In this document: piece after piece, positions 3,870 to 61,811 of the stretch
How positions within the stretch are numbered: position 1 is the stretch's first letter
How the letters are laid out: each line of letters begins with the position of its first letter
Source: a virus
Taxonomy: Duplodnaviria; Caudoviricetes
IMG/VR virus record: IMGVR_UViG_3300021164_001199
Span: 30,063-94,062 of that record
DNA: 64,000 nt
Direction: 5' to 3' (one strand)
Notes under the pieces: model-generated
What the model was told of the DNA's origin: nothing
The model's database searches: none
Seen by the model: the letters and a program-made list of their open reading frames with translations, nothing else
Program-made: the position numbers and the translations under genes

Positions 3870-6800
3870 ATGGAAGATATCTTCAAAGATTCAAACACAG
3901 TTATTACTCCAGAACTAAATGATTTTTATTCTAATTCATTTTTAGTAAAAGGTAATCCAGCTGATGAAAATGTATTACCTGCACCACAAGTTGGTGGTGA
4001 TAATGATGATAAAGCTAATGTTAGATCTTTAATTAATAAGCTTAATAACATATCTGATTTATCTAAAAATAATATATCTAATCTACAAGCTACTTATACA
4101 GATCCATTAAAGGATGCTAAAATGTTTGCTTTTAATCCTACTTATAAAGGATTAAATTGGGATAGATATAAAAGTCATTCAGCATTTAATGAATTAGGAT
4201 TTGATCCATTTAGAGATAATGAGAAGTTTTATAATGATAATACTTCTATCTATTCTGATATTACTAGAGGTATTCAAGGTTTTGGTAAAATAACTGCTAG
4301 TGCCTTTATGAATACTGCAGCAGATTTACCAAGATTATTAACAGGTAATTGGGATCCTAATACAGAAGCAGCAAAAGAAACAGAAAGAATTATGGCTGAG
4401 ACAATGTCCACTAGAGGAACATTTGGTTCAAGTGTAATTAACTTTGGTATCAATGCTGGTTTTACTGTAGGTATTATAGGTGAATTAATAGCAGAAGAAA
4501 TGATACTTGGTTTAGCTGGTTTAGCTGGTGCACCAGAAACTGGTGGTGCTTCATTAGGAGCAGCTGGTTATTTAATGGCAGTTAGAGCAGGATTAGCAGG
4601 TAGTAAAATTGCAGGACTTGGAAAAACAACAGGAGCATTATTAAAGACTATTAAAAATTTAGATAATGCTGTAGATGCAAAAAAATACTTCAATCAATTT
4701 GGAAGAGGGGCTGCTGAATTTTTAAACCCATTACAAGCAACTACTGACTTAGCTAAGAATTTTAAAAACTTAAATGGACTAGGACAAACAGCTAGAGCTG
4801 CTAAAAGCTTTGGTGCCTTTTTTAAAGATATAAGAGATATTAATAGATCTTTTTCTGAAGCTAAACTAGAAGGTGGGTTTGTTCAAAATGCAATGTTTGA
4901 AAAACTTTTAAATGAAGCTTATGCAAATGGTAAAACACCAACACCAGAAGAAATAGATAAAATTAAAGAAGCTTCATTACATGCTGGTTATGTGAATCAA
5001 ATGGTAAACTTTCCAGTTATACATTATACTAACAATATTGCATTTGGAAATTTAGTTAAACCACTTAATAGATTAATTGGATCTACAGAAGACTCAATTA
5101 AAATATTAAATAAGACTATAACTGCAGACATAACTAGAAAAAAAGTATTTCAAGAATTAGCAGGAGGTTGGAAAGAGTCACTTAAAAGAGGTTTTAATCC
5201 TAAACTAATGGCTAAGAATAGTCTTAACTATTTTTCAGCAAACTTAGCAGAAGGTTTACAAGAATCATTTCAGGAAGCATCAGCAATTGCTATAGAAGAT
5301 TATTATACTAAACAGTTTATTAATGAGAATAGTATAGTAAGAAATCAATATGAATTAAGCATACTTGATAGTTATGGTAAAGGTATTGGTGAACAATTTA
5401 GTGCTCAAGGTGCTGAGACTTTCTTAAGTGGTTTCCTAATGGGAGGACTGATGGGTAGAGGTGGTAAGATAGCTAGAAAAATAGGTACTGGATTAAATGA
5501 AAGTTCAAATAAAGTAAAAGACTTATTTTATTCTAAAACTGATCCAGAAAAATATAAAGAAATTAAAGAAAAAAGAGAAATAGCAAAAGCAGAAAAAGAA
5601 GCTAAGATTAAAAAATATGATGAGTTTAGAACTAATCTTATTAATAGTCTAAATGATTTTTATGAAGATGCTGGTAAAATGTTCTCTCGTGATTTAGCAC
5701 ATATGTCAGCTCAAGAAATACTTGATGCTAAAGCTAAACAAGCACAAGAAACTGGTGATGATAAATTCTTAATTGATTTTACAGATGCATCATTATTTGA
5801 AAGTGTAAGTAATGCTTTATACTTTGGTAAGTTTGATTTATATCTAGAACACTTAGATAAAATTAAATCATTAGATGATCAAGGTTTAATGGAAGCTATG
5901 GGTATTGATGATGCTCAAGCTGGTAGACAAAGATTAGAAGTATCTATTGAAAGAGCAAAAGAAATTAAAAGTAGATCAAAGAAGTTCTCAGAAAACCCTT
6001 ATAAATATAATGATTATAAAGAGGGCACAGATGAGTACAATGAAATGGTTTTAATGCATAATGCTTTTGAAGATGCTAAACAATCAGCAATATTTACCCC
6101 ATATCAATTTGATAGGGTACTATCAAGAATGAATTCAATTGCTGAATCATTTTCTAGTATTGATTTAGTAGCTAATGGTAATGCAACTGAATTCCTACAT
6201 CTATTTGGTGTAGATAATATTCTTAATGAGGTAGAAATTTTAGATAATGAAATACAATCATTAAAAGATGGTACCAGAGAGAATGAAGCATTAGCTAGAA
6301 GAAAAGAAAAACAAATTAAAGATTTAGCTGAAGTACGTGATGCAATAATTGCTCATAGAGCTTATTTTAAAGCATTAAAAGAAACTGATACAGTTGATAC
6401 TTCATATGAGAAAAATCTTAAAAATGCTTTTATAAAATACTTAGGGTCTTATGGTGAAAATAAAAGTAGAATATTAAAGTCTGATAAACTTGATGATGCT
6501 TTCAAACTATTTCATGATTATTATAGATTAAATATAGATGCTGAATATCTTAGTAAGAGTGTTGCTATAGTAGCAGATCCCGATTTCTTAAGACAAGAAT
6601 CTTTAAGAAGATATAATGCATTAAAGAAACAATATACAAATAGAAAAGAATTAATAAAAAAGAAATGGGATACTTATCTTAGAAAGATAGGATTAAATGG
6701 TGTATTCCAAAAGTTATATGAAGCTGGTTTTGCTGGAGATCCAGAACAAATGGTTGCATATAACTTATCAGGAGGAAAAACACCTGTAAATCTATTTTAT

Positions 6801-9236
6801 AGAATATCTGACTTTAGTAGAGTAACTGCAGCTGATGTAGAAGACATTAAAAAGATTAAAGAGATTTTTGATGAGTATGAAGATATAACTGGTATAACTA
6901 AAGCTAAAGAAGAAGCTGCAAAAAAAGCTGCTGAGGCTGCTGCTAAAAAACTAGAAGAAGAAGCTGAAGCTGCTAGAGTAGCTGCAAAAGAAAAAGCTCT
7001 TGATATATATACTCCAGAAACTAAAGCTAAACTAGTAGCAGACTATGAAAACTATCCAGAGAAAGATACTGAATCTTTTGAAGAGTATTTAGAAACACCT
7101 AGAGCAGCAGTTATAATCTATAAGGAAAAACAAAAAGAACAACAACTAACTCCTGCTGAATTATTAGGTCAATTTATATCTGGTTTAGCTACAGATCAAG
7201 GATTAAAAATAATAGAAGCTAGTTTACTCAAATCAGGTAAATTTATTATTTCTAATATATCTAGAGCTACTTCAGAACAAAGACAAAAAATAGATTCAGA
7301 TATAGAAAAACTTAGAAATAAATATACTGAAAAGAATATTGTAACTAGAATAGAAAATGGTAATCTTATTATTGAAGTAGATATAAGACCAACACCTATT
7401 AATATAAATGAACCAACTCCAAAAACATTTCAAGAATTAAAAAGTGAAATAGAAAGACTAAGAGCAGAAGAAGAAACTAAGTATGCTGCTATGTCTGATC
7501 CTAATGATGCAGTAGCAAGAGCTAAAATTTATGAGGAGTATAATGTTTTAATAACTCCTTTAATAAAAGAAGCAGAAGCAGACATAAAAGCAAGAAAAGA
7601 AAAAGATATAAATTCAATATCAACAGATCCTATTAAGGAACCTTCTGAGTATAATGCTTATATATCTAAAATCAATGATATATATAATGCAGAACTAGAA
7701 TCTTTAAAGAAAAAAGAAACACCACAAACTAAAGTACAATCTTCTACAATAGAAGGTCAAGTAGGTACTTCTAATTATACTGTAGAAGAAGGATTAATCT
7801 TTTATGAAAATGAAGATGGATCTAGAAGACCAGTAGCTAATCCTGATGGTAGACCTATTTTAGATGTTATTAAATCTGATATAGAAAATAGAAGAAATGA
7901 AGAGTTAACAAAATATGATGAAGGAAAATTAACTAATACTGAAATAAAAGTTAATAATTATAAAGCTTATATACATTCAACCCCAACAAATGTTATTTTA
8001 AAAATAGGAGATAGATATGGAGAAATAATTTTTGAAGGTTCTGGTATTTATGGGTATAATCTTGAAAAACTTATAAATGCAGAAACAGGGAATACTATAG
8101 AGCAACAGCATAATGGAAGAGATGTAATACAATCTAAATATAATGAAGAACTAACTGCTTTAGAATCTGAACAACCTAAAAAAGAAGAGCCTGAAGTAAA
8201 AGAAGCATTTCCTTTATCTCCACAGTTTGAAGGTAAGATAATTTACTTCTCTCCAGGTTTAGGAAAAACTACATTAGTAAATCAGTATCCAGATCAGTTT
8301 GTAGATATGGATGTATTACTATATGAAGAATTTAAAGATGAACCTGGATTTGAAGATGCAACACCAGAAACTTTTGGTACAGCTATTTCTGCAATTTATA
8401 AAAATTTAAAAATTACTGGACAACCTGCTGAGGCATTTAATGTAATTAAAAATAAACTTTATGATAATGCATTTAAAAAAGCTAAAGAATTAACTAAGCA
8501 AGGTAAAACAGTATTAACAGGATCTGGTGCCTTTATTTCTAAAGCTGATTTTAGTGTAAAAGCTAATGATGAAAAAATATCTAAGGAACAGTTACTGAAT
8601 AAAAATCCAAATATGGATGAAATAGATCTTTCAGAAGCTTTAAGTGGTATAAGAAGAAATGAAAATAGAAACAATATATTATTATCTGTTGATAAAGATT
8701 CATTCATTCAATTCTTAATGGGTAACTACGATATTCTTAAATATATCAATGAAGATATAACATTTAAACAACTTGATGAATTAGGTAAATTTATGATGGC
8801 TCCATTATCTCCAGAAGTTATGGAAGCTTTTAGTAAAAAAATGGAATATTTTCAAGCTAGAGAATTATTATTTAGTAGCTTGCAGCCTGGTGACACAGTC
8901 ATTATATATAATGAAAAAACTGGTAAAAATTATACAACTAAAATAATGAATAAAAAAGATGCAAATAGTTATAATTTAGAAATTGTACCTGATGGAAGTT
9001 CATATCTAATGCGTAGTAATCTTCCCAACTTAATAAATGTCATACCAACACAAGGTACTAGTGAAGGTATTAAAATAGATGAAGTAGATAACTCAGATGC
9101 TGAAGATAATAAAACAAAAGTAAATGATGTTGCTACAGAAACAGAAAGATTAAAAGCTTTATTAAATGAATCATTCAATGATGATGATTTATTTGAAGAT
9201 GCTGAAGACCCTAATAATTGTAAAATTAAAAAGTAA
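3870..9236 (+). CDS. Giant virion cargo protein (1788 aa) with Gly/Ala-rich hydrophobic segments and a C-terminal P-loop kinase-like domain
   Basis: Hydrophobic GLAGLAGAPETGGASLGAAG segment. Walker A-like IIYFSPGLGKTT followed by FVDMD near 8240-8315. Its stop overlaps the vRNAP start (TAATG). Confidence 0.65.
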   Translation: MEDIFKDSNTVITPELNDFYSNSFLVKGNPADENVLPAPQVGGDNDDKANVRSLINKLNNISDLSKNNISNLQATYTDPLKDAKMFAFNPTYKGLNWDRYKSHSAFNELGFDPFRDNEKFYNDNTSIYSDITRGIQGFGKITASAFMNTAADLPRLLTGNWDPNTEAAKETERIMAETMSTRGTFGSSVINFGINAGFTVGIIGELIAEEMILGLAGLAGAPETGGASLGAAGYLMAVRAGLAGSKIAGLGKTTGALLKTIKNLDNAVDAKKYFNQFGRGAAEFLNPLQATTDLAKNFKNLNGLGQTARAAKSFGAFFKDIRDINRSFSEAKLEGGFVQNAMFEKLLNEAYANGKTPTPEEIDKIKEASLHAGYVNQMVNFPVIHYTNNIAFGNLVKPLNRLIGSTEDSIKILNKTITADITRKKVFQELAGGWKESLKRGFNPKLMAKNSLNYFSANLAEGLQESFQEASAIAIEDYYTKQFINENSIVRNQYELSILDSYGKGIGEQFSAQGAETFLSGFLMGGLMGRGGKIARKIGTGLNESSNKVKDLFYSKTDPEKYKEIKEKREIAKAEKEAKIKKYDEFRTNLINSLNDFYEDAGKMFSRDLAHMSAQEILDAKAKQAQETGDDKFLIDFTDASLFESVSNALYFGKFDLYLEHLDKIKSLDDQGLMEAMGIDDAQAGRQRLEVSIERAKEIKSRSKKFSENPYKYNDYKEGTDEYNEMVLMHNAFEDAKQSAIFTPYQFDRVLSRMNSIAESFSSIDLVANGNATEFLHLFGVDNILNEVEILDNEIQSLKDGTRENEALARRKEKQIKDLAEVRDAIIAHRAYFKALKETDTVDTSYEKNLKNAFIKYLGSYGENKSRILKSDKLDDAFKLFHDYYRLNIDAEYLSKSVAIVADPDFLRQESLRRYNALKKQYTNRKELIKKKWDTYLRKIGLNGVFQKLYEAGFAGDPEQMVAYNLSGGKTPVNLFYRISDFSRVTAADVEDIKKIKEIFDEYEDITGITKAKEEAAKKAAEAAAKKLEEEAEAARVAAKEKALDIYTPETKAKLVADYENYPEKDTESFEEYLETPRAAVIIYKEKQKEQQLTPAELLGQFISGLATDQGLKIIEASLLKSGKFIISNISRATSEQRQKIDSDIEKLRNKYTEKNIVTRIENGNLIIEVDIRPTPININEPTPKTFQELKSEIERLRAEEETKYAAMSDPNDAVARAKIYEEYNVLITPLIKEAEADIKARKEKDINSISTDPIKEPSEYNAYISKINDIYNAELESLKKKETPQTKVQSSTIEGQVGTSNYTVEEGLIFYENEDGSRRPVANPDGRPILDVIKSDIENRRNEELTKYDEGKLTNTEIKVNNYKAYIHSTPTNVILKIGDRYGEIIFEGSGIYGYNLEKLINAETGNTIEQQHNGRDVIQSKYNEELTALESEQPKKEEPEVKEAFPLSPQFEGKIIYFSPGLGKTTLVNQYPDQFVDMDVLLYEEFKDEPGFEDATPETFGTAISAIYKNLKITGQPAEAFNVIKNKLYDNAFKKAKELTKQGKTVLTGSGAFISKADFSVKANDEKISKEQLLNKNPNMDEIDLSEALSGIRRNENRNNILLSVDKDSFIQFLMGNYDILKYINEDITFKQLDELGKFMMAPLSPEVMEAFSKKMEYFQARELLFSSLQPGDTVIIYNEKTGKNYTTKIMNKKDANSYNLEIVPDGSSYLMRSNLPNLINVIPTQGTSEGIKIDEVDNSDAEDNKTKVNDVATETERLKALLNESFNDDDLFEDAEDPNNCKIKK

Positions 9237-12200
9237 TGGCTTGTCTTACACAAAAACAATTAGATAACATATTTAAATCAATTGGTAATTATTTTAAAAA
9301 TTTAAATGATCCAAAAGATTATAATCACTTAGAACATCTATTATATATTTATAATAAAGGTATATCTAGTGGAATGACACCAGCAACAGCTCTATCATAT
9401 GTGCAAGCTGTACCTAAACTAGTTCAAGCATATAAAGCTATAACTGGAATTAAATTAATTAAAGATGAAAATATTCAAGTAGCAAGACTTGAGTCTGATT
9501 TTGAAGATAATGATTTAAATTTTATTGCAGATACTTTAGAATTAACTAGTGAAAAAGAACCTGAAGAAATTACTGAAGTAACAACAGATGAGGTAGTTGC
9601 ACCTAAAGGTCAAACATTAAAAATATTTACTGCTAAGACAAATGATCCAACTTCTACTACTGGTCCTGATGAAAGAAAGGATGATGGTACTCAAAGTATA
9701 GATCCTAAGAAAACTTGGTACCACGGATTTACACGTAAACTTATTGCTAATGCTGTAAGTGGATTTGATGGTTCTACTATAACAATTAAAAATCATACTG
9801 GCTTTAAACTTAAAGCTATCAAAATGTCTGAGATTCCTTATGAGGAATTATATGATTTTCTAAAAACTCAAAGTTTATCTGAAGAGCAATTAAAAGCAAT
9901 ATTAGATAGAGACCAGATTGTAGCATTAGTAATTACTGATAATAATGGTAAAATATTAAAGTTTAATCAAGATTATGCAGTTGCACCTGATGGAAAGTTA
10001 ATATACTTTCAAATGAGAGATACTAACTATGATTTACTAGATGTTGTAGGAGCAAGAGGTGTAATTCAAAGTGTTGAAGAAATATCTAGTAATTTAAATA
10101 TATCTTATAAAGAAGCAGAAAGAAGAGTTAGAGAAGGTGTAAATAATTTAAGAGCAATCCAGAAAGGAGTATTTGAAAATAAAAATGTAATACTTGATAT
10201 TACTGGAGGCAGTCGTGGCTACTTACCTTTACTAGAAAAAAATATTAAACTGAATTATCAAACTGCTCCATCTACATTAGGTCAAGTAGTTGCTAATATG
10301 GATTACTTTGAAATTAGTTACAATACTACTGGTGGAACAACTAATAGATTTATTACTCTATATGGTAATACGATTAATTTATTTACACGTAAGGCAAATG
10401 ATGAAGAATTAAGTCTATTTAGTGATGCTGTTGTAGAAAACTTATTAAATTCTGATGATACTACTGTAGGTTTAGAATTCTTAAGTCAGTATTTAGCAAT
10501 GACTAATTCTAATAAGAATGAACTTAGAAAATTACTTGAAAGTATTAAAGAATCAAGAGATAAAGAAAATGGTGTAGATAGATTAAAAAAATATTTAAAA
10601 ACAGCAGGTTCTAATAAGAATGGTTTTTGGTTAACATACCAAAAAGAATTACCTGAATATTTTGGTATTAAGAATGGAGAACTTGCTATTATCAATAGAG
10701 AAGAGTATTATAATTTTTGGAAAGATGTTTTAAAAACAGCTTTACCATTAAATGATGATGATAAAGTACAATTGTTTAATTCATATTTAAATTTTGAAAT
10801 TGATAATAAAACTAAAGAAACTTTAGGATTAAGTAAATCTGAAGAACCTAAAATAGAAAAGAAAACTAGTGCTATTGTAGCAAATACAAATTTTGACATA
10901 GATTCTTTAATGAAAGAAAAAGGAATATCTTCTGAAGCTACAAAGAAACAAATTCAAGATGCTTTAGATTGGTATGAAAATAGTCCTTTAAAAAATGTAG
11001 TACCTGTTAATGTACTTTTTAATGTTTTAAATTCAAATTCAAAAGCTGTTTGGGAAAGATCAGGAATTACTTTATTTTTTGGTTCTAACTACACAGATTT
11101 ATATCATGAGGCTTGGCATGCTTTCTCTCAATTGTTTTTAACAATAGATGACAAACAAAAGTTATATGCTGAAATTGGAAAAATGTCTGGAACATTTGCT
11201 TTACCAGGTGGTGGTAGAATTAAATATTCAGATGCAAAACCAGTTCAAATAGAAGAGTTATTAGCTGAAGACTTTAGACAATATAGATTATCTAATGGTA
11301 CAAAAGTATTTGGGCAAAGACCAGTGACTAATAGAATCTTTTCTCAAATTTTAAAGTTATTAAATTGGTTATTTGATAAAGTTTCATATCAACAAACACA
11401 AACAGATTTTAATTCATTAAAGAATGTAAAAACATTATATGATAAATTATATCTAGGTAACTTCATAGATATGAAACCTGATGCTAAAAATATCATGTTT
11501 GGTTCATTAGCATCTCCTATAGGTTCAGTAGAAAATGGTACTCAATTAACTATTACTCAATCAAATGAAATAGCAGATACAATGGATGCTATTATATCTG
11601 ATGTATTAGAAAATATTGCAAAAGAAACTGGTAAAGTTATTATTGGTAACTTTTTAAATTCTAAGAATTCAATTAAATATGTTTATGGTAAAATAAAAGA
11701 AGCTTTTGAAAAAAGAGTAGTTGAATTAAGTGAAGATGTAGTAGCCAATGAGTATGCTATAAACTTATTAAATATTGCTATAACTGACTTTGGAAATATA
11801 GATGATACAATAGATAACAAGAAATTAAATGATAGCACAACTATATCGTATCACCTTAGAAGATCTAAGATATTAGATTTTAAAACTAAAACTTTAGATG
11901 ATAATGATGAAAAAACTGTTGACTTAGATACACATATTAAAAAAGAATTAGCTGATAATGGTGAACTATCTTTTGAAGAACTAGCAAATGAAAGAGTATT
12001 ATTTCTTATTAAAACATTAAAACAATATGATTCTAATGGTAATGTAGAAATGAATGACTTAGGCTTTCCTAAACTTGTTAAATTCAACAAAGTATTAGGA
12101 ATTCTAATTAGAGAACTTAATAATAACTCAGGGCCTAAATCTATTAAAGCTAAACTAGAAGCATTGAGAGATAATGGTCAACATGAAATTGGTGAACTAT

Positions 12201-24800: not shown

Positions 24801-27800
24801 AAGACAAGAAATGACAGATGCAGGAGTTAATGTAGCTAGTCCCATATTTCAATTACTAACTAAAGCAACTATTAATGCTGAATCTGGTATTAGAATAATA
24901 TATGAAGAAAATAAGAAAGCATTACCTTTAGTATTAGCACCACATTTAAAAGGAATCAATGAAGTACTTATTAAAGAATTTAATAAAGTAATTGAGGAAA
25001 TGGTTGCTAGAGGTTCATCTCGTGAAGCAATTGCTGCTAAGGAAAGAGAAAGAGATAGTTATCTTAGAGATGAGAATACATTAGCTAAAGTAATGGTTGG
25101 TGAAACACCAGAGCCAGCAGGATTAGGTTTAAGTACTTTAGTTGAAAGTGCTGTATCTAGTCCAGATGAATTAATATCAAGTTTTGCGTTATATGTTAAG
25201 GAAGCTTTAATTGATGTAGAACTTAATGCTACTGCAAACTTTAATGATTTCTTAGCTGATACTAGAAAACTTTTAAAAGACGCAGGATTAGATGATTTTA
25301 AATTAGTATCCAAACTTGGTAAGATTATTACTTTTAAAGAAGAACTAGGATATACTGACCCTAAAACAGGAGAATTCAAAACTCATGAAGTTCATACATT
25401 TTTAAATAAATTTAAAGGATATGAATTAGTATTATCTAAATTTAAATATGATATAAATAAAGCATTAGAGAATGGTGATTCAGAATTAGCGGCATCTCTT
25501 GAAATGGACCGTGAGGAATGGAAAAGAACATATATGCATGATAAATGGAAACCTGAAGTTTATAAAATATATGATGTCTTCAAAAAAACTTATGTTAACT
25601 CTGCAGGAGTTACTGTTGAAATTGGCAAAATGGCCAAAGAAAGATATAATAAAATAATGGATAATATCAATAATGGTATTAAACTCATTGATGATGAATT
25701 AGAGAGAGTTGAAATTCAGAATAGAATGAAAATTGATACTCTATGGGTAGATTATAAAAAATTATTTAGTAAATATGATGATGATGGTCTTCTCAAAACA
25801 GGAGATGAAATGGCTATTACAGAAACATTACTAGAATATAGAGCTCAAAGAAAGGAATATTTTGAATGGGAGTCAGATGAAAGTCCTGATAGTATGCCTA
25901 TTCTTAGATTTAAGAAAGCTAGAAGTTTATTTATAGATCAACTATTAACTAAGTTTGAGAGATCTGATCTAGAATTTGCTCAGAAGTTACAAGAGTGGGA
26001 TGATATGAATACTAGAAAGGTTATTGATAAACAATTCTATGTAGATAAAGCCTTAATACTTGAAAAAATAAATGAAATATATAATAGTTTATCAGGTTCT
26101 TTTGCAGAAGATTCTAAAATTGTAAAAGAAACTAAAGAGTATTGGGATTTAATTATTAATCAACTGTATGCTTACAGAGATGAGGAAAATCATCCTAATG
26201 GACTTTTAGTTTCTAAAGAAAAAATAGCTGAGATTAAAAAAGCTCAAGAAAAAATCCAGGAACTACAAGACATGATTAAAAATGGAAATGGTTTATCTAG
26301 AGCAGAAACAAGAGAATATAGAAGATTAGATGAATTAGTAAAACGTGGAATTGAGTTATCTGCAAAAGACTATTCTGACTATGAAAATTTAGAAATTAGA
26401 TCTAATTTTTCTTCAATACCAAAAGGAGTTAAAAGTGATTTAAAGAAATTATATGCTGATCTTGAAAATTTACAAAGTAAAAAAGCTACTGATTATTATT
26501 TAGAAGTTTATAATTATCAGATTGACTTACATAATCGTAGACAAGAAGCAAAAGGATTACCTGTTACAGTGAAACATTTTGATAGATTTGCTATTGATTA
26601 TGATGCATTAGATAGAGGGTTTGTAGAGAGTGTATTTAAAAAAGATCCAGAGTTTAAAAAATGGTTCATGGCTAATCACGTTGAAGTAGAAAGATGGGAT
26701 GATGAACTTCAAATGAGAGTAATAAGATTTGAAAGATTATTCTTATGGAATCAAATTGAACCTAGAGACTCTAAATATAAAAAAAGAGTTCAATGGAGAG
26801 ATGAAACAGGTAGAGATATATTTGTATGGGGATTACCTTCTTTATCATATTACAAACAAAATATTAAACCAGAATATGCTACTGAAGAAATTGTAGGAGA
26901 AACTGTAGATAATAGAGGTAACTATTTGCCAAGAGAAAATGTAGTTAATAGTCCTTATATTAATCAAGCATATTTTGATTTAAAAAGAGATAATATAGGT
27001 GCATTTAACTTACTTGAAAAAATTAAAGAGTATCATATTAAGTTTCAAGAAAAAGCTGATAAATCTGATAGATTATGGATGCAAGTTCCTAGATATGAAA
27101 AGACTAGTAAAGAACTTACAGAAACTAATAAGTTTTTTTCTGATAAAACTTCAACTGCTAAAGCTGCACTTAAGAATTTTTTAAATAAATTTAAAGTAAA
27201 TGCTGAAGATACTGATGAAGGTTTAGGTGTTGAAGATAAATTTAAACTTACAAGATTAGACTTCTTTAATGATGATGAACAAAAAATTCATATATCAGGT
27301 AAACCATTAATAGATGAAGATCAAGTATCATTAGATGTAATTACATCTGTGCTTAGACATATGCATTCAGTTGAGAGAGCTCATAAATTAGCTGAGATTG
27401 AACCAATTGCAAAAGCATTAATGGAATTAATGAATGATCCTAAAAATCAACCTAAAGATATTACTAAAGCTAGTATGTATCATTGGATTACTCAAAAGAT
27501 ACCAATATTTGCTAATAAAAAAGGTGAGAATATTAGAGCTAAGGCAATTAAAGGATTAATAGACAGAACTTTCTATAATGTTCAGCAAACAGGATTTGGT
27601 TCTGATGCTATAGTTCTACAGAAATTATCTAAAGTAATGATGAAAGCTGCATCTTTTGGATTCTTTGCCTTAGATATACCTTCAGCTGTTAAAAATAGAT
27701 TTGGTCAACAGTTACAACAAGCTATTGAATTAGCTGCTGGAACAAGTTATGATGGAAAGAGTTTCCTAAAAGGGAAAATTATTGCATCTAAAGCTATGTT

Positions 27801-28959
27801 AGAAATATCTGGATCTATTTATAGCAAAGGTAAACTTCCATACTATGCTCAATTAGTAAATGCTTTTGATCCATCGCAAGGTATGGCTATGGATAAACTA
27901 CCACTGTATATTACAAGAACAATTTATAAGGATGTTGCTTCTCCAGGAAACATTTTAATGTCACCTAGAAAATTCTTAGAAATTGAAGGAACATTAGAGT
28001 TTTTCTTTGGTGTAATGGAATTTACTAAAGTAGATCAGACTATCAATGGTGTTACTACACAAATTCCATATCATGAAGCTTTTGAGTTAGTTAATGATAG
28101 ACTAAAATTAAGAGAAGGTATTGATGAGAAATGGGATTTAGGAGGAAGTGAATTCAAAAGAAAAAGAATATTCATACAGGAAAAGCAAAATATTCTAAAT
28201 GGAGTCTATTCTAAATTTGATCAACCAGAAGGTAATAGATATTTGTTCTATAGAATGTTTATGTTCTTAAGAAAATTCTTCATTACAGGTATGGTAAATA
28301 GATTTGGTTTTTCAGGATCCTTATTTGCTCCTAGATTTAGAAGAAATAATGCATCTCAAACTTTAGAAATGGGATACTGGATACAAAGTGCTAGAGCATT
28401 AGCAAAACTATTAGTTACTACAGGTAAACACTGGCACTTTATGAGACCATCTGAGAAAGGTGCTGTATATAAAGCTTTAACTGAAATGGCATTGTTAACT
28501 ATATTGTCTGCTTTAATTCCAATGTTATTTGGTTGGGATGGAGATGATGATGATAAATATGAGAAACTAAGGAAGAGACAAGGTGGACCATTAGGTTCAG
28601 ATGATTTTGAAATGGGTGGATGGTTAGCTAATCATTTATTATATCAAACAATGAGTGTTGCTTCTGAGAATATGCAGTATTATAAAGTAGGATTCTATTC
28701 TGATATGCTTAGTAACTTTAACTTAGCAAACGGACCATCATTACAAACTTATGGTAAAATATTAGGTGATATTATTAATATGGTAACAGATGATGATGCA
28801 GCATATTATAAAAAAGATGTTGGTCCATATTCTTGGCAAAAAGCAGAATCAGCTAAAATTCTTAATCACGTAGCTAAAATGTTCTCATTAACTGGTAAGA
28901 CATTAGATCCATCAAAAGCAATTCAAGATTTTAAATCAGCAGAAAATATATATAAATAA
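21802..28959 (+). CDS. Giant virion cargo protein (2385 aa) with two zincin-like HExxH domains and a C-terminal hydrophobic segment
   Basis: TPLHEYGH...EETIVELLG and LFHEFSH...EEMLVRALT. Hydrophobic MALLTILSALIPMLFGW near the C-terminus. It follows the vRNAP as in crAss-like genomes. Confidence 0.7.
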   Translation: MACKIIRNEDGTVDRVLADNNERSILYNQIRETTTEEQALLDYSGTFTEEFKNVIESFKNSEDSTNIYDENGEVQYYIYDYIMHPEKFFGQNNVVNTKFQKDRNNNLRIAGLSYLVGTLEMLSVKFGLSYEVIFDESNPNKGYIDVISYGKPTIIINASKASHDTPLHEYGHIFINLIKLSNKNLYSNLVKEILNTEIGKKELSDVKNYYSNYTLEEQIEETIVELLGRYARNEFDPESGIHKTIKKIWNTILEFLSKTFNVEIKDISPNMSIEQLSKLLSNPNVNFNQKSFIEQNLETIKNTNIKNKERLENEYTDFKKINNPSLIRENGYTLIINKNEFDIFKKEIETTINSIKEYSKSQLLIDINNIKSEITTFQERNNFDYSRYPMFTKILKFFHPTPNTALYVLDREIQNGNLDNEIKDNLKFLDKSLTEITQDVLSGYMISDQLGIKIPDFYKMSSYTFSSFNSVEEIENSFIDKLSELNKIIQNPEKSDSYYDRSFKFSTETDTYKVYGKFKDGNISISFSSDKYGMKDVNNSLFFKILPKVIDSISYMFSDLEYNTISFTPVSGESSKGRDLRLKGYNIFAKRLFGQFSLVAENDNTTIIPIPEMFKNQIHIKENMYQKDRTDIPVIQSAQFNQIQNDTNENIAVEVLNKIANRISKNLNGVPYNSIEEADAVSLLASTKEKYTGQPAFFYNGQVYFIKDKLNLENLFHEFSHPFIKAIKKTNPGLFNKLYDNLIQTEEGQKLKDLVKEYYNHDENSEEFKEEMLVRALTTRARNNELKVQESSGFDKLMNQLWYAVKQIIRKIFGKVKIDKLNENTTLDELVKMLNNESFEISAKDITDSERADFNNLKKESVKELISKANATLVQSNIDKLFKLIRSGQQVLEQGETNYPGLEESISKEKLDSPFQEEYNAISRYQTYTKTNEEPLDLVNYREKQIEGLVLSIEAYNDSIEKIILEINRLKSDPNSIVTISKNMYFLKILKQTLQTFVELRQEMTDAGVNVASPIFQLLTKATINAESGIRIIYEENKKALPLVLAPHLKGINEVLIKEFNKVIEEMVARGSSREAIAAKERERDSYLRDENTLAKVMVGETPEPAGLGLSTLVESAVSSPDELISSFALYVKEALIDVELNATANFNDFLADTRKLLKDAGLDDFKLVSKLGKIITFKEELGYTDPKTGEFKTHEVHTFLNKFKGYELVLSKFKYDINKALENGDSELAASLEMDREEWKRTYMHDKWKPEVYKIYDVFKKTYVNSAGVTVEIGKMAKERYNKIMDNINNGIKLIDDELERVEIQNRMKIDTLWVDYKKLFSKYDDDGLLKTGDEMAITETLLEYRAQRKEYFEWESDESPDSMPILRFKKARSLFIDQLLTKFERSDLEFAQKLQEWDDMNTRKVIDKQFYVDKALILEKINEIYNSLSGSFAEDSKIVKETKEYWDLIINQLYAYRDEENHPNGLLVSKEKIAEIKKAQEKIQELQDMIKNGNGLSRAETREYRRLDELVKRGIELSAKDYSDYENLEIRSNFSSIPKGVKSDLKKLYADLENLQSKKATDYYLEVYNYQIDLHNRRQEAKGLPVTVKHFDRFAIDYDALDRGFVESVFKKDPEFKKWFMANHVEVERWDDELQMRVIRFERLFLWNQIEPRDSKYKKRVQWRDETGRDIFVWGLPSLSYYKQNIKPEYATEEIVGETVDNRGNYLPRENVVNSPYINQAYFDLKRDNIGAFNLLEKIKEYHIKFQEKADKSDRLWMQVPRYEKTSKELTETNKFFSDKTSTAKAALKNFLNKFKVNAEDTDEGLGVEDKFKLTRLDFFNDDEQKIHISGKPLIDEDQVSLDVITSVLRHMHSVERAHKLAEIEPIAKALMELMNDPKNQPKDITKASMYHWITQKIPIFANKKGENIRAKAIKGLIDRTFYNVQQTGFGSDAIVLQKLSKVMMKAASFGFFALDIPSAVKNRFGQQLQQAIELAAGTSYDGKSFLKGKIIASKAMLEISGSIYSKGKLPYYAQLVNAFDPSQGMAMDKLPLYITRTIYKDVASPGNILMSPRKFLEIEGTLEFFFGVMEFTKVDQTINGVTTQIPYHEAFELVNDRLKLREGIDEKWDLGGSEFKRKRIFIQEKQNILNGVYSKFDQPEGNRYLFYRMFMFLRKFFITGMVNRFGFSGSLFAPRFRRNNASQTLEMGYWIQSARALAKLLVTTGKHWHFMRPSEKGAVYKALTEMALLTILSALIPMLFGWDGDDDDKYEKLRKRQGGPLGSDDFEMGGWLANHLLYQTMSVASENMQYYKVGFYSDMLSNFNLANGPSLQTYGKILGDIINMVTDDDAAYYKKDVGPYSWQKAESAKILNHVAKMFSLTGKTLDPSKAIQDFKSAENIYK

Positions 28960-47662: not shown

Positions 47663-48967
47663 TTAATTTGATGTTATGTTACCTATTGTAATATTGTTAT
47701 TTCCATTTAAGTTATATGAATAAACGTAATCTAAACATTGTGTTTTAAATCTTAGAGTAAGTGTATTGTTACCTACAATAGTTGTATTTAAATTTGGTAA
47801 AGTACTGACAACAACTCCATTAATTAACCATTCAATATTCTGCACAGTGTTAATACAGTCTAATACTGGAAGACCTGCTAGTAGATTATTACAATTTAGA
47901 TTATAAGAAAATGGGAGTATTACAGGTAAAGGGCAAGGTTGTATATTATTAGGTAATCCAAACTCTAGCATGATTGCTGTTGCATAAAAGTTAGGAGTAA
48001 AAGTACATCCTGCACCTAATACATTTGGAAATCTAATACAATGTAAAAATGATGAAAACTTTTGTGCTATAAATATTCTACCATCAGGTGTAGCTTGCAT
48101 AGTTCCTATTAAATTACCTATTCCTGGAATAATGGTATAAGATAAACTGTTTGTACATACATCAAACTGCTGTATTTTATTAGTAGCATTAAAACTTAAG
48201 TATAATAATTTACCATTAGGAGAAAACTCACAAGAATATGGCCCAGGTTCAGCACTTAATAAAACTTGATTAGATACTAGACCTGTAGCATTATTAAAAT
48301 TATAAACACAAAAAGTACCTTGAGCATAATTAGCCATAGCTAATCTGTCTCTCAAAGGTGAACTTCTTAATGCTCCAATTTCTCCAGTAACATTAGTTCC
48401 AGCATTACTTGTAGTCCATGTCGTTAAGCCAAATGATGTTAGTTTAACAGCTCTGAATGTACTATTATTCATTTCATGAGTAATAATCCACTTATCTATA
48501 TTATTAGCAGCCATACACATAGTCATTCTTTCACTAGTATTAGGAGCTATAATTATATTTTTTACAATTACATCACCTAGCCCTGAATTTAAAGCCATGT
48601 TTACTATAGAATAGGAATGTAATCCGCCACCACCTTGTTGAGGTACTGTAAATACATAATAGAAAACGGAGCTTCCTGGTTGTGCTGTTATTATAACTGA
48701 TTGAGCAGAACTAATACCACCATTTAATCCAAAACCATTAGTCATTTGAACATGATTTCTATTCCATACTCTAACACCATCACTATACATTAATAGTTGC
48801 CCTGTGTTATCACTAATAGTAGCACAACCTTCTGTTGCTGTAATTTGAGATATGGGTTGATTAGTTGGGCCTGGAAATCTAATATGATTATTTCTGCTAA
48901 TAACCCAATTGTTAAATTCTTGAGCATTAGCAGAAATAGTTAATAGTATTAAAATTAGTGTTCTCAT
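47663..48967 (-). CDS. Secreted beta-propeller protein resembling the N-terminal domain of Bacteroidota T9SS cargo proteins
   Basis: Signal peptide ending ANA-Q. EGCATISD..GQLL.YSDG..VWNRNH..M.NG.GL.G..SS.QS, EFSPNGKLLY, PDGRI, GLPN. Confidence 0.75.
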   Translation of the reverse strand: MRTLILILLTISANAQEFNNWVISRNNHIRFPGPTNQPISQITATEGCATISDNTGQLLMYSDGVRVWNRNHVQMTNGFGLNGGISSAQSVIITAQPGSSVFYYVFTVPQQGGGGLHSYSIVNMALNSGLGDVIVKNIIIAPNTSERMTMCMAANNIDKWIITHEMNNSTFRAVKLTSFGLTTWTTSNAGTNVTGEIGALRSSPLRDRLAMANYAQGTFCVYNFNNATGLVSNQVLLSAEPGPYSCEFSPNGKLLYLSFNATNKIQQFDVCTNSLSYTIIPGIGNLIGTMQATPDGRIFIAQKFSSFLHCIRFPNVLGAGCTFTPNFYATAIMLEFGLPNNIQPCPLPVILPFSYNLNCNNLLAGLPVLDCINTVQNIEWLINGVVVSTLPNLNTTIVGNNTLTLRFKTQCLDYVYSYNLNGNNNITIGNITSN

Positions 48968-58876: not shown

Positions 58877-58902
58877 AAAAAAAAAGAGGAACTATTCCTC
58901 TT
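58877..58902 (-). terminator. Rho-independent terminator overlapping a stop codon
   Basis: AAGAGGAA/TTCCTCTT stem plus a T-tract. Confidence 0.55.
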
Positions 58903-59146
58903 CTGTGTAATCTTGATCTAGTAGTTTTTCTAGATCTGAAACATCATCTAATTCTTTAATTAGAGATTCTTCTTCTTCATCATCATCTACTTCTTGCTCA
59001 ATGTTAAGAGCTGAATTAAACCAAGGATTATTTGTGTAATCACCTTGATTATATCCTATTAAATTTTGAAAATCTGCATCAGACATACTTAAGTAGTCTT
59101 CTATAGACATTTCAACTACTTTACCATTTGAGAGTTGATACAACAT
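58892..59146 (-). CDS. Small acidic protein
   Basis: MLYQLSNGKVVEMSIEDYL...; D/E-rich C-terminal half. Confidence 0.65.
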   Translation of the reverse strand: MLYQLSNGKVVEMSIEDYLSMSDADFQNLIGYNQGDYTNNPWFNSALNIEQEVDDDEEEESLIKELDDVSDLEKLLDQDYTEEE

Positions 59147-59235: not shown

Positions 59236-59799
59236 CTAACGTATAAGAATAACTTTACCAATCTGTGATTTCCATCTTTTTCTTATATCTAACCACTTTG
59301 CTGAGTAAACATAAATATCATCTTGAACAGGTTCTTTATTTTGATTAAATGTACCATCCCAACCAATATTTATATCATTTGATTCAAATAGTAATTCACC
59401 CCACCTATTATAAATTAGTAGATTGAATTCTTTTACATTTTCTCCTTTTGCTGCAAAACTATCATTAAGTCCATCACCATTTGGAGTGAATGAATTTGGG
59501 AAGTATATATTAGTAGTATAGCATCCATCTACTTGTATTTTGTATATCTTTTTAATGACATTACAAGCAAAGTTGTATTCAGCTTTTATAATATACTCTC
59601 CAGGTTCTGTCCAATTAATTTGTAAGTTGGTACCTGTTTCACCTTGGTTATTATAAGTCCATAATAAAGGATAAGTGTTATCAGGAATGTAATAAGTAAA
59701 GTTGCTTTGTGAATCAGGACATAATGAAACAAATTGATTTACTTGAGAATAACTTTTAAAAACGTAAAATATTAAAAATATAATATTTAAGTTTCTCAT
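59236..59799 (-). CDS. Secreted protein with a T9SS type-B C-terminal sorting domain (gliding-motility-associated CTD, CHU_C)
   Basis: Signal ending SYS-Q and one Ig/PKD-like domain, then IYFPNSFTPNGDGLNDSF...IYNRWGELLFES...GWDG...DIYVY...GKVILIR. Confidence 0.9.
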   Translation of the reverse strand: MRNLNIIFLIFYVFKSYSQVNQFVSLCPDSQSNFTYYIPDNTYPLLWTYNNQGETGTNLQINWTEPGEYIIKAEYNFACNVIKKIYKIQVDGCYTTNIYFPNSFTPNGDGLNDSFAAKGENVKEFNLLIYNRWGELLFESNDINIGWDGTFNQNKEPVQDDIYVYSAKWLDIRKRWKSQIGKVILIR

Positions 59800-60356
59800 T
59801 AGTGAGTTATATTTCCAAGAGTTATTGTACCATTAACAATTATTGCTATTGTAGCTGTTACAGGACATCCTGCTATTGTTCCATTAAATGTCACATTGAA
59901 TGTACCATTACCTGATATATTAGGACAAAAAGTATCACCTGATACACCTACTCCAGTCCATGTACCTATAATATTAGGTACAGTGGTTAAAGTAACACAA
60001 GGGTCTGTTGAACACAATGGACTTACAGGTTGTATAGTAACTATAGGATTAATTATCTCTACATCTAATGTTTGAGGTGTAACAGGACAATTAGTACCAG
60101 TTAAAGAAACAGTAATAGCATTAGTAATATAAGATACTGCAGCTGAAGACCAATTTACTATAATAGAGTTAGTACCCTGTCCAGAAACTAATATACCAGG
60201 AGCTGTCACAGTCCATACTATTGTTCCTACTGAAGGTTGAGGTATACTATATACAGTTGATGTATTTCCTAAACATACCGTGTCAGGATTAATTGTACTT
60301 TGAGCATATGTTAGACCTGATAACATTATTGCACATACTAAGAGAATTGCTTTCAT
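59799..60356 (-). CDS. Secreted protein with two Ig/PKD-like repeats (SprB-like adhesin fragments)
   Basis: Signal ending TYA-Q. DTVC...Y...WTV...GQGTNSI.VNW and LC...GTWTG.GV....F.P...G.G.F.VT. Confidence 0.75.
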   Translation of the reverse strand: MKAILLVCAIMLSGLTYAQSTINPDTVCLGNTSTVYSIPQPSVGTIVWTVTAPGILVSGQGTNSIIVNWSSAAVSYITNAITVSLTGTNCPVTPQTLDVEIINPIVTIQPVSPLCSTDPCVTLTTVPNIIGTWTGVGVSGDTFCPNISGNGTFNVTFNGTIAGCPVTATIAIIVNGTITLGNITH

Positions 60357-60377
60357 GATTAATTTATTAGAGATTTA

Positions 60378-60860
60378 TTAAAATAAGTTTTTTTGAAAAT
60401 AGTCTGTGTGAACCTCATACTTGTAAGCATTATCAGTAACTAAGTTTTTTATTAGTATTTCTTTAGTTCTGCTTTTCTTTAACTTAACAACTTGATTAGT
60501 AGTTAAATTAATAATAGCTGATATCTTACAACTCATTTTCTTCTGTGAGAGTACATTAATTGTATCATTAGCAAATGTTACAATAGTAAGTTCTGTTTGA
60601 TCAGAACAATATGATTCCATATAGGTACCATCTCTAAGAAGTATTTTGTTTTCCATAGGGTCCACATAATACACTTTTAAAGTTCTTGTATATCTAAATT
60701 CAGGCTCACTATCTTCATTTTCTAAGATGGGAACTATATAGTTCTTAGCATCTAGAAATAAAGGAGCAGGTTGAATATTATTAAATACTTCTTTTGGACC
60801 ACTAAAGTCAATAGTAAAAAGTAATAATAAGAAAGTACAGGACAATAAAGTATTTTTCAT
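60378..60860 (-). CDS. Exported or membrane-anchored hypothetical protein
   Basis: N-terminal hydrophobic signal MKNTLLSCTFLLLLFT. Confidence 0.6.
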   Translation of the reverse strand: MKNTLLSCTFLLLLFTIDFSGPKEVFNNIQPAPLFLDAKNYIVPILENEDSEPEFRYTRTLKVYYVDPMENKILLRDGTYMESYCSDQTELTIVTFANDTINVLSQKKMSCKISAIINLTTNQVVKLKKSRTKEILIKNLVTDNAYKYEVHTDYFQKNLF

Positions 60861-61600
60861 TTTATTTTAATTAGTCTACCAGATAAATCATAATAATTAT
60901 TGTAGCTATCTGAAACTTCTGGAGCTACAATATAATCAACAAACACTTGTGATAAATTTCCATTCAAATCTTCTTCAATAACTCTATAATAACTTACACC
61001 AGGTAAATATTTATAGTCATCAAATTCATATTTGTTTAATGTTGAACTATATGCCACTGATTTAATCTCACAAACTCTTGTCCAATTAACTAAATCAACA
61101 GATTTGTCTACTAAAAACTGTTTGCTAGCACTAGATGAACATATCATAAATTGACATTGTACCCTAGAGTTAAATAGTAAAGTATATCCGCATAATTCAA
61201 CAGCTAATGGATTTAAGTCTAAGTAATATGGACAAATGTTGTCTATACCTGTACAATTGTCTCCATAGGTTGTTATAGTTATACTCACATTATATGGTTG
61301 ATCTATAGTTAAACCAAAATACACATAACCTAAATAAACTATATTACCTGAAGTGTCCGTTACAACTACATCACTAATTTGAATTCCTCCATTATTACAA
61401 AGAGCACTAGAGTATCCAAAGTATAATGCAATTATTGAACTTGTAGGTATAAGTGTAAAATTTACAACAGTGTCTTGAGTTGGCTCAAAGAAAGCAGTAC
61501 AATAATCTTTATCATACAATTGTGCAAAACTCAAATTAGATTGAGCTTGCTTAATAGTATCAGTTAATAAAGTTAAAGAAAGTAATAATGAGGCTAACAT
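60857..61600 (-). CDS. Secreted protein with an LPVEL-type Ig module and a truncated T9SS type-A CTD-like tail
   Basis: Hydrophobic N-terminus. PLAVEL...F.V.KS.D..NW...YEFDD...YYRVIEEDLNG; ends YYDLSGRLIKIK. Confidence 0.7.
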   Translation of the reverse strand: MLASLLLSLTLLTDTIKQAQSNLSFAQLYDKDYCTAFFEPTQDTVVNFTLIPTSSIIALYFGYSSALCNNGGIQISDVVVTDTSGNIVYLGYVYFGLTIDQPYNVSITITTYGDNCTGIDNICPYYLDLNPLAVELCGYTLLFNSRVQCQFMICSSSASKQFLVDKSVDLVNWTRVCEIKSVAYSSTLNKYEFDDYKYLPGVSYYRVIEEDLNGNLSQVFVDYIVAPEVSDSYNNYYDLSGRLIKIK

Positions 61601-61612
61601 GCACTGAATAGA

Positions 61613-61629
61613 TATACTATAATATACAG
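61613..61629 (-). promoter_or_regulatory. Putative phage promoter motif CTGTATATTATAGTATA
   Basis: Lies between a strong terminator and the ATG at 61600; resembles the motifs at 1092 and 43204. Confidence 0.45.
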
Positions 61630-61640
61630 TATTTCAGCTT

Positions 61641-61678
61641 AAAATAAAAACCTATTACCTAAATGAATAGGTAATAGG
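61641..61678 (-). terminator. Rho-independent terminator downstream of the guaC-like gene
   Basis: 11-bp stem CCTATTACCTA/TAGGTAATAGG followed by TTTTTATTTT on the minus strand. Confidence 0.8.
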
Positions 61679-61811
61679 CTCTTAAAAAATCTTACAAAAA
61701 TATATGCTTTACTTTACAAGTTTTCCCCCAAGAAAAAACGCAATATCTGACATGGTTAGTATTAGAAATTAAGTTTTTTAGCAAAACATACAATAAAGAA
61801 CGAATAAGATT

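Follow-up and report, generated by a model that had tools for sequence, protein, structure and literature searches.

A phage operon predicted to encode a split, exported adhesin with a miniature type-B cargo of the host type IX secretion system

Phages of Bacteroidota are already known to carry genes for proteins with the C-terminal sorting domain (CTD) of their hosts' type IX secretion system (T9SS). In 'Cryophage' the phage-encoded cargo consists of enzymes or PA14 proteins with type-A sorting domains (Bellas et al. 2020, PMC7468147), and T9SS sorting-domain proteins were reported in crAss-like cluster 2 (de Jonge et al. 2019, PMC6949934); in these cases a hijack of the host system was proposed, and roles in superinfection and competition were discussed. 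The concept of phage T9SS cargo is thus not new in itself (PMC7468147, PMC6949934). Here, we analysed a window of 64,000 nucleotides, the final 64 kb of the 94,062-bp IMG/VR viral record IMGVR_UViG_3300021164_001199, in which four consecutive minus-strand genes, p4, p3, p2 and p1, encode small, putatively exported proteins (Table 1). Like the systems mentioned above, the locus includes a phage gene with a host T9SS sorting domain. Unlike in Cryophage, the domain is of type B, it is carried by p1, a non-enzymatic protein of 187 aa, and p1 stands in a conserved module of CTD-less, predictedly exported partners that are fused in other phages. Neither type-B cargo of phages nor the module itself was the subject of any paper that we found. 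New here, and described below, are a miniature orphan type-B cargo, a module that exists both split and fused, tails that co-vary and a series of CTD reduction. The reading that we favour, and for which we consider the chances to be about even, is that of an accessory operon encoding the pieces of a split SprB/PKD-type adhesin, with p1 exported by the T9SS, which remodels the surface of the infected cell.

The CTD of p1 was recognised by two curated profiles, PF13585 (CHU_C; E 7e-17, 61.8 bits, cut-off 27) and TIGR04131 (E 1e-15, 57.6 bits, cut-off 35). Residues 99-172 of the 187 were aligned to positions 2-74 of the 85 in the profile, and a six-frame search of the contig scored the same domain at 64 bits. 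The domain lies at the extreme C-terminus of the protein, and the family alignment remains conserved through the last residues, G..x.L[IL][RK]. Five blocks are near-invariant in this alignment: PNxFTPNGDGxND, NRWG, WDG, YxY and GxxxLxR. Since the scores exceed both curated cut-offs, the original prediction that p1 ends in a complete type-B CTD holds, and we identify the domain as a true member of this type. The remainder of p1 includes a small Cys-containing N-terminal domain, which cross-matches the profile of p2.

Type-B substrates have been studied in Flavobacterium johnsoniae, where 9 of the 12 have a cognate PorP/SprF-like gene directly downstream, while the other three (Fjoh_1123, Fjoh_1720 as well as Fjoh_4934) are orphans with a common unlinked shuttle, Fjoh_1677 (Paillat et al. 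2025, PMC12618676). When CTD fusions are made in large amounts, they leave the cell only if the shuttle is co-produced, and secretion by a type-B CTD needs five conserved motifs, A-E (PMC12618676). Similarly to these orphans, whose secretion is limited by the amount of shuttle, p1 has a type-B CTD and no adjacent porP/sprF-like gene; unlike them it is encoded by a phage and is far smaller, and its shuttle would be that of the host, a pairing that is predicted. In a search for PorP/SprF (PF11751) nothing matched at E<=1, neither in the 94-kb contig nor in five further module-bearing phage records, one of which is complete; two bacterial genomes searched in the same way as a positive control had 16-17 copies each. 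The partner that had been noted as missing from the window is thus missing from this wider set as well. Because the phage encodes no PorP/SprF, p1 would be an orphan type-B substrate dependent on a host shuttle, and since the orphans of F. johnsoniae use an unlinked shuttle, the lack of a phage PorP/SprF is not disqualifying. If the phage mini-cargo is made in large amounts, it could compete for a shuttle in limited supply with the substrates of the host itself.

Relatives of p1 are numerous. Among 5.8 billion proteins 1,216 were found, including a full-length family of 183-204 aa with 33-43% identity. When IMG/VR was scanned with a profile of the p1-family alignment, p1 relatives turned up in 131 viral contigs; the profile was needed, as pattern scans of the same collection with the single sequences of p1 and p4 gave nothing. 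We fetched 80 of the 131 contigs as loci (loci are given by L numbers below) and searched their open reading frames (ORFs) iteratively. In many viral loci p2 and p1 form an adjacent, co-oriented pair, p2 first, and both proteins are of about 187 aa with predicted signal peptides; 26 distinct full-length p2 sequences were obtained. The module is widespread and mobile among phages, and the pair occurs in several unrelated genomic settings: in the clade of the phage described here, in jumbo-like contigs of up to 190 kb, including a complete genome of 174.7 kb, in crAss-like contigs and in others. Homologues of p4 (BLASTP E 1e-15 to 5e-21) and of p3 (E 2e-19) join it in some lineages.

Other viral contigs encode one fused protein of 650-820 aa. 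Its order is signal peptide, N-domain, weak SprB repeat, PKD_6, p1-like (Ig) domain and CHU_C. The split genes stop at positions equivalent to the inter-domain linkers of this fused form, e.g., at ...PTITPITPYN before the ...ELC... start of the p1-like part, and the proteins encoded upstream of p2 share motifs with its N-terminal parts, namely the N-domain (L007, L023) or SprB-repeat-like sequence (L036, L045, L082). Of the 80 nearest CHU_C homologues in bacteria, most are long and have multiple domains (their median length is about 900 aa, with many cut at the locus edge) and several contain p2-like repeats; their loci have no p3 homologue. Compared with SprB/SprF of F. johnsoniae, the phage proteins have in common the CHU_C/type-B CTD, PKD-like domains and, weakly and in the fused phage form, SprB repeats; they differ in that the phage version is miniature, split over several genes and without sprF. 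The fused form and the position of the gene ends support the view, put forward in the original prediction for one host adhesin, that the module corresponds to an adhesin split into separately exported parts; the change between the two versions may have been a fission or a fusion.

The location of the fused form brings in a different explanation, according to which these proteins belong to the virion, either as Ig-like pieces that decorate the particle or with CHU_C as a receptor-binding module that docks on PorP/SprF-type proteins from outside. At L048:7009-9210, and in about 25 similar loci, the fused gene directly follows two tail-sheath paralogues and a gp19-like tail tube gene, and in L007, which also has Pfam matches to CrAss ring, muzzle and cargo proteins, the genes around the module are those for the crAss ring and muzzle. 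Assembly of tailed-phage virions takes place in the cytoplasm, whereas signal peptides that look canonical and cleavable, together with conserved cysteines, point to export. Moreover, in the window the operon lies inside the replication block, far from the structural genes, and a PHROGs search assigned none of p1, p2, p3 and p4 to any family, structural ones included. We consider a virion role very unlikely. A site within a myovirus-type tail module is an odd one for an exported protein.

The other members of the operon were compared with known domains and folds. p2 had been described as two Ig/PKD-like repeats. One PKD_6 domain was confirmed (PF19408; E 5e-7, 30.5 bits, cut-off 25), which covers residues 20-83 only; the C-terminal half has no Pfam match, and there is no sign that the two halves are copies of one repeat, so the second repeat is not supported. 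The model of p3 (pLDDT 91) consists of an N-terminal helix and a compact beta-sandwich. Foldseek returned no significant match for it and VIA-align returned only generic beta-sandwich matches, the best of which was Bartonella IalB (Z 6.8); as the matches are generic, we give p3 no specific function from its structure. Homologues of p3 are located upstream of the p2-p1 pair in the crAss-like loci L007, L022, L027 and L029.

In p4 the AlphaFold model (pLDDT 79.9) predicts an N-terminal beta-sandwich followed by an Fn3 domain at residues 131-228. Aligned to solved Fn3 domains with VIA-align, this domain reached Z 10.3 with an rmsd of 2.1 A over 86 residues, and dozens of Fn3 entries matched it at Z 9-10; from the model we assign these residues to the Fn3 fold, an assignment of fold and not of function. 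The LPVEL...YYR-type module with a short tail that had been noted in p4 was found again: the module, 'LAVEL...YYRV', is the Fn3 domain itself, and it is followed by 19 floppy residues that end in YYDLSGRLIKIK. In Foldseek and the ESM Atlas p4 matched only generic two-sandwich architectures; many of the ESM Atlas matches carry Por_Secre_tail, which we treated as a lead only.

The tail of p4 looks like the remnant of a type-A CTD. Across 17 homologues, whose identity is otherwise 26-65%, its residues Y, D, L, G and R never vary. In p4 itself the type-A CTD profiles (TIGR04183 / PF18962) found no match at E<=1, with none at E<=10 for the C-terminal part, and PF18962 matched nowhere in the contig. 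The resemblance to a remnant is suggested by p4 homologues elsewhere, since the one at L053:2-757 has a full type-A CTD after the Fn3 domain (PF18962, 39.1 bits, cut-off 27) and the one at L045:5632-7848 has a full-length but weak CTD (19.9 bits). The homologues at L035:7145-8212 and L016:6763-7671 have partial type-A CTDs, and the tails of 11-12 residues in the present p4 and in the jumbo-like lineage form the short end of the series. The short tail retains the 'YDxxGR' and the terminal 'LIKxK' motifs. In the loci of p4 homologues, other PKD proteins with signal peptides finish in a comparable tail (Y-x-I-D-G-K-L-[IV]-K-K-L).

A further protein, of 434 aa and encoded about 10 kb away from the operon (Table 1), is a displaced fifth member of the module. 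It has no Pfam match. Its homologues, found by jackhmmer (up to E 4e-230 after iteration), include the 453-464 aa proteins that directly adjoin p2/p1 in other phages, and it is this position of the homologues from which membership was deduced. In L013 the homologue directly follows p1, and in a 103.5-kb relative p3 and p2 are separated by a gene for 451 aa.

At their C-termini the CTD-less pieces have short motifs which differ between phage lineages and agree within a phage. Pairs formed by p2 and its upstream neighbour are, e.g., ...PIQHN/...PISHN, ...IFTN/...IYTN, ...IQHF/...INHF and ...IQHD/...ISHD (loci with such tails include L017, L024, L045, L053, L055 and L082; the endings are HN, HD, TN, TD and HF), and in the window the tails are ...GNITH in p2 and ...GNITSN in the 434-aa protein. 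Clustering of p2 at 60% identity gave 8 clusters, which are not wholly independent of one another; with one representative of each, the neighbours were permuted in 10,000 rounds. Identity of the final two residues was seen in 5 of the 8 clusters (p ~0.002), and 22 of 32 comparisons matched over the last four positions, a number reached by no shuffle. The likeness does not extend beyond the final 4-6 residues, and it is seen even when the domains in front of them are of different families. Such co-variation suggests a shared partner or a shared sorting step. A more specific version of this idea would have the tails serve as minimal trans-acting tags (the lineage-specific 'I-x-H-N'/'I-[FY]-T-N' on p2 and the 434-aa protein; YYDLSGRLIKIK on p4) that bind p1 or a host shuttle and take the pieces out along with it, so that the split adhesin is rebuilt on the surface. 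We regard this as unlikely; if true, it would mean piggy-back export by the T9SS with sorting signals far shorter than any known CTD. A His-Asn tail acting as an intein-like or isopeptide-forming strand was also considered and rejected as speculation only, since the proteins lack an intein domain and their final residues are not constant.

We judged export signals by visual inspection and with a hydrophobicity heuristic. An export signal had been proposed for every ORF of the operon, and for p1 and p2 the sequences agree with this: both have signal peptides that look canonical, with a Gln directly after the predicted cleavage site, as is typical of Bacteroidota signal-peptidase-I substrates. 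At the N-terminus of p1 a basic n-region precedes a hydrophobic segment some 11 residues long, which leads to SYS|Q, a layout common to 27/27 aligned family members. For p3 and p4 the claim is less secure, as set out below, though distant p4 homologues have canonical signals. Invariant cysteines occur in p1, p3 and p4, and therefore an extracytoplasmic location fits these proteins.

Several observations speak against the reading of the module as a split, T9SS-exported adhesin. The hydrophobic N-terminal helix of p3 may be an uncleaved signal-anchor, with p3 possibly held in the membrane, and the signal of p4 is weak in this clade and has no basic n-region. Among the pieces only p1 bears a recognised T9SS signal, and the crossing of the outer membrane by the others may at most be predicted. 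The tail test comes from a small set of partly dependent clusters. The CTD tree, built from 91 kept columns, is poorly resolved and mixes viral and bacterial sequences, with 22 label changes against about 48 when labels are shuffled; a single phage-specific CTD clade, for which the original prediction had advised to look, was rejected, as the viral and bacterial CTDs interleave. Finally, the placement of the module varies, from the replication block here to the neighbourhood of lysis genes (crAss-like, L007-type) and the position after the tail tube gene (fused form), and therefore the timing of expression and the role may differ among phages.

The mechanism that we propose for the split adhesin would run as follows. 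The phage accessory operon would supply small exported beta-sandwich proteins that amount to an SprB/PKD-type Bacteroidota adhesin cut at its linkers. Each piece would reach the periplasm by its own Sec signal, p1 would then pass the host type IX translocon, and a host shuttle of the PorP/SprF family would hold it on the surface. These steps of Sec export, T9SS passage and SprF-like retention are drawn from the domain content and from what is known of T9SS biology (PMC9143113, PMC12618676). The CTD-less p2, 434-aa protein and p4 probably act together with p1 or with a common partner, given their co-varying conserved tails. In this manner the surface of the infected cell, or its T9SS/gliding-adhesin system, would be remodelled. 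SprB and RemA are thought to be phage receptors, and mutations in T9SS/gliding genes lead to phage resistance in flavobacteria (PMC9804748). The most likely route would be that p1 occupies the host shuttle and displaces or masks host T9SS adhesins that are phage receptors. The outcome may be superinfection exclusion, or progeny that do not go to waste on infected cells and debris by adsorbing to them. In this picture the export of the proteins, their display on the surface, their assembly into a complex and their biological role are all inferred from the sequence.

Another way to see the same set of domains is as a means of controlling adhesion or behaviour: a displayed mini-adhesin could stick cells to surfaces or neighbours, or stop gliding, so that progeny are released beside new hosts. 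All parts have adhesin-type folds (PKD_6, Fn3 and beta-sandwiches) and their homologues are bacterial SprB/PKD-type surface proteins, which is what such a role would call for, but the sequence does not separate it from receptor masking, and the displayed part of p1, of about 80 residues, would be very small for an adhesin unless other pieces join it. We consider control of adhesion rather unlikely. As for receptor masking and superinfection exclusion, small exported proteins of this kind are known from other phages: Llp of T5 and Bor/Lom of lambda are envelope proteins of the moron or superinfection-exclusion type, lipoproteins or beta-barrels that reach the envelope via Lol/Bam. The present proteins would resemble them as small, exported, envelope-altering accessory proteins, often bounded by their own transcription signals; the difference is that delivery here would be by the T9SS and that the function is predicted.

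If the proposed mechanism is true, many Bacteroidota phages, crAss-like ones included, put their own proteins on the infected cell via the host T9SS, and they would aim at the layer of shuttles and adhesins by which the cell glides and which phages use as receptor. The module would then be a candidate for a system of superinfection exclusion or surface remodelling, and the phages that have it are abundant in freshwater and marine settings. With no more than a signal peptide, one small domain and a CTD, p1 would be a minimal type-B cargo provided by nature, and as such a handy probe of the substrate choice of SprF-like shuttles, a question on which work in the field has only started (PMC12618676). 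The existence of split and fused versions, the tails that co-vary and the stepwise shortening of a type-A CTD to 12 residues would be natural experiments on which parts of the signal are needed.

As the domains are of host type and the contig is metagenomic, linear and only about 79% complete (CheckV), we asked whether the segment could be an assembly chimera or a set of decaying, functionless host fragments. The order guaC-like gene, p4, p3, p2, p1, small ORFs and helicase recurs in a contig of 14 kb that comes from a different metagenome and whose proteins have about 88-93% identity, as well as in the IMG/VR contigs L013 and L014 and in the 103.5-kb contig; order and flanks are thus kept in independent assemblies from other samples (L004, L013 and the 103.5-kb contig). 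The dN/dS values against the L004 orthologues were 0.08 for p4, 0.23 for p3, 0.36 for p2 and 0.17 for p1, within the range of the flanking genes, and by this measure all four genes are under purifying selection. In addition, the region has a uniform G+C content of about 28% and the genes appear to be translationally coupled. Since the gene order recurs in independent assemblies and the genes are under purifying selection, we judge that the segment is not a chimera; this explanation is already largely refuted and hardly credible. The cassette is conserved in related phages, a point that the original prediction had proposed to test, and it is kept in unrelated ones too.

In the GenBank phage collection p1 and p2 matched only uncultured phages of 635-642 kb, and the p2-p1 pair is found in one of them, LR745206.1 (634,780 bp), at 26947-27912. 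Megablast of the region and tblastn of p3 and p4 against the same collection gave nothing, and none of the four proteins occurs in a cultured phage of this collection. CHU_C matches are also present in LR756502.1, a second huge phage. A contig from a metagenome-assembled genome (MAG) binned as Bacteroidia (L143, JBBRND010000026.1) encodes a p1-like protein of 141 aa (5842-6267) and a p4-like protein of 425 aa (8626-9903), 2.4 kb apart; it may be a prophage or a mis-binned phage contig. Clustering of the loci by shared flanking genes overlumped them, with unflagged module proteins acting as links, and it was not used for counting lineages.

The neighbourhood of the module in crAss-like phages is also the ground for a further explanation, in which the proteins are envelope or lysis accessories, exported late into the periplasm or outer membrane, where they would breach the envelope or time lysis. 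In L007, L022, L026, L027 and L029 the genes directly downstream of the module encode small membrane proteins, an endolysin (annotated as Peptidase_M15_3 in L007) and one more membrane protein, and in L010 and L011 a glucosaminidase gene is directly upstream. Against this, no recognised lysis gene lies within 5 genes on either side of the operon in the window and its relatives, and the proteins have no enzyme or membrane-disrupting domains. Besides, morons often adjoin lysis genes for reasons that have nothing to do with lysis. We therefore hold a part in lysis to be quite improbable. The conserved run after the module in L007 (10561-12211; likewise in L022, L026, L027 and L029) comprises two small membrane proteins, the endolysin and a protein of about 190 aa with a hydrophobic N-terminus, and is probably a lysis cassette among the tail ring genes.

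The four minus-strand ORFs were found where the original prediction had placed them (Table 1). p4 and p3 overlap by 4 nt and p2 and p1 by 1 nt, with a gap of 21 nt between p3 and p2, and we read the four genes as translationally coupled. The 11-bp terminator described between the cassette and the guaC-like gene was confirmed. Its G+C-containing core stem (61651-61678) is extended by A/U pairs, with a 6-nt loop and a U-run at 61641-61650; the RNA folds at -22.2 kcal/mol (z -5.75), and 0/200 shuffles were equally stable. The candidate promoter proposed after this terminator found no support, as between the hairpin and the p4 start codon neither a sigma-70-type match nor the Bacteroidota motif TAnnTTTG was found on the minus strand. 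A second hairpin follows a small gene, orf84, downstream of p1, and the transcription unit is therefore probably p4-p3-p2-p1-orf84. The product of orf84 is very acidic; the gene is kept beside p1 in close relatives only and has a dN/dS of 0.25.

Table 1. Positions of the operon genes, the flanking hairpins and related features in the window.
Feature	Position	Strand	Description
p1	59236-59799	minus	187 aa; predicted signal peptide ...SYS|Q, small Cys domain, type-B CTD
p2	59799-60356	minus	185 aa; predicted signal peptide ...TYA|Q, PKD_6, second Cys-containing region, tail ...LGNITH, no CTD
p3	60378-60860	minus	160 aa; N-terminal hydrophobic helix, compact beta-sandwich (model), two invariant cysteines
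p4	60857-61600	minus	247 aa; weak signal peptide, N-terminal beta-sandwich and Fn3-like module (model), 12-aa tail YYDLSGRLIKIK
Upstream hairpin	61641-61684	minus	between guaC-like gene and p4; intrinsic-terminator-like
orf84	58892-59146	minus	84 aa; acidic, no export signal; between p1 and downstream hairpin
Downstream hairpin	58882-58904	minus	terminator-like; 10 pairs, then T-run
434-aa protein	47663-48967	minus	signal-like N-terminus, tail ...IGNITSN; displaced fifth module member

The contig is that of a phage, as supported by its status as an IMG/VR viral record and by its genes for DNA polymerase, helicase, giant virion proteins and tail proteins. Its G+C content is even, at 26-31%. The plus-strand half contains giant ORFs of 918, 1788, 4187 and 2385 aa, with other virion and tail proteins upstream of them. 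In the minus-strand half are an A-family DNA polymerase, a helicase, thymidylate synthase, ATPases and the guaC/IMPDH-like gene; the direct neighbours of the operon are the guaC-like gene, the helicase and small ORFs. In the jumbo-like loci L008, L010 and L020 a protein of 456-477 aa with no signal peptide is encoded between p1 and p4, and its copy in L010 (10614-12032) matches the YadA_head repeat with 35 bits.

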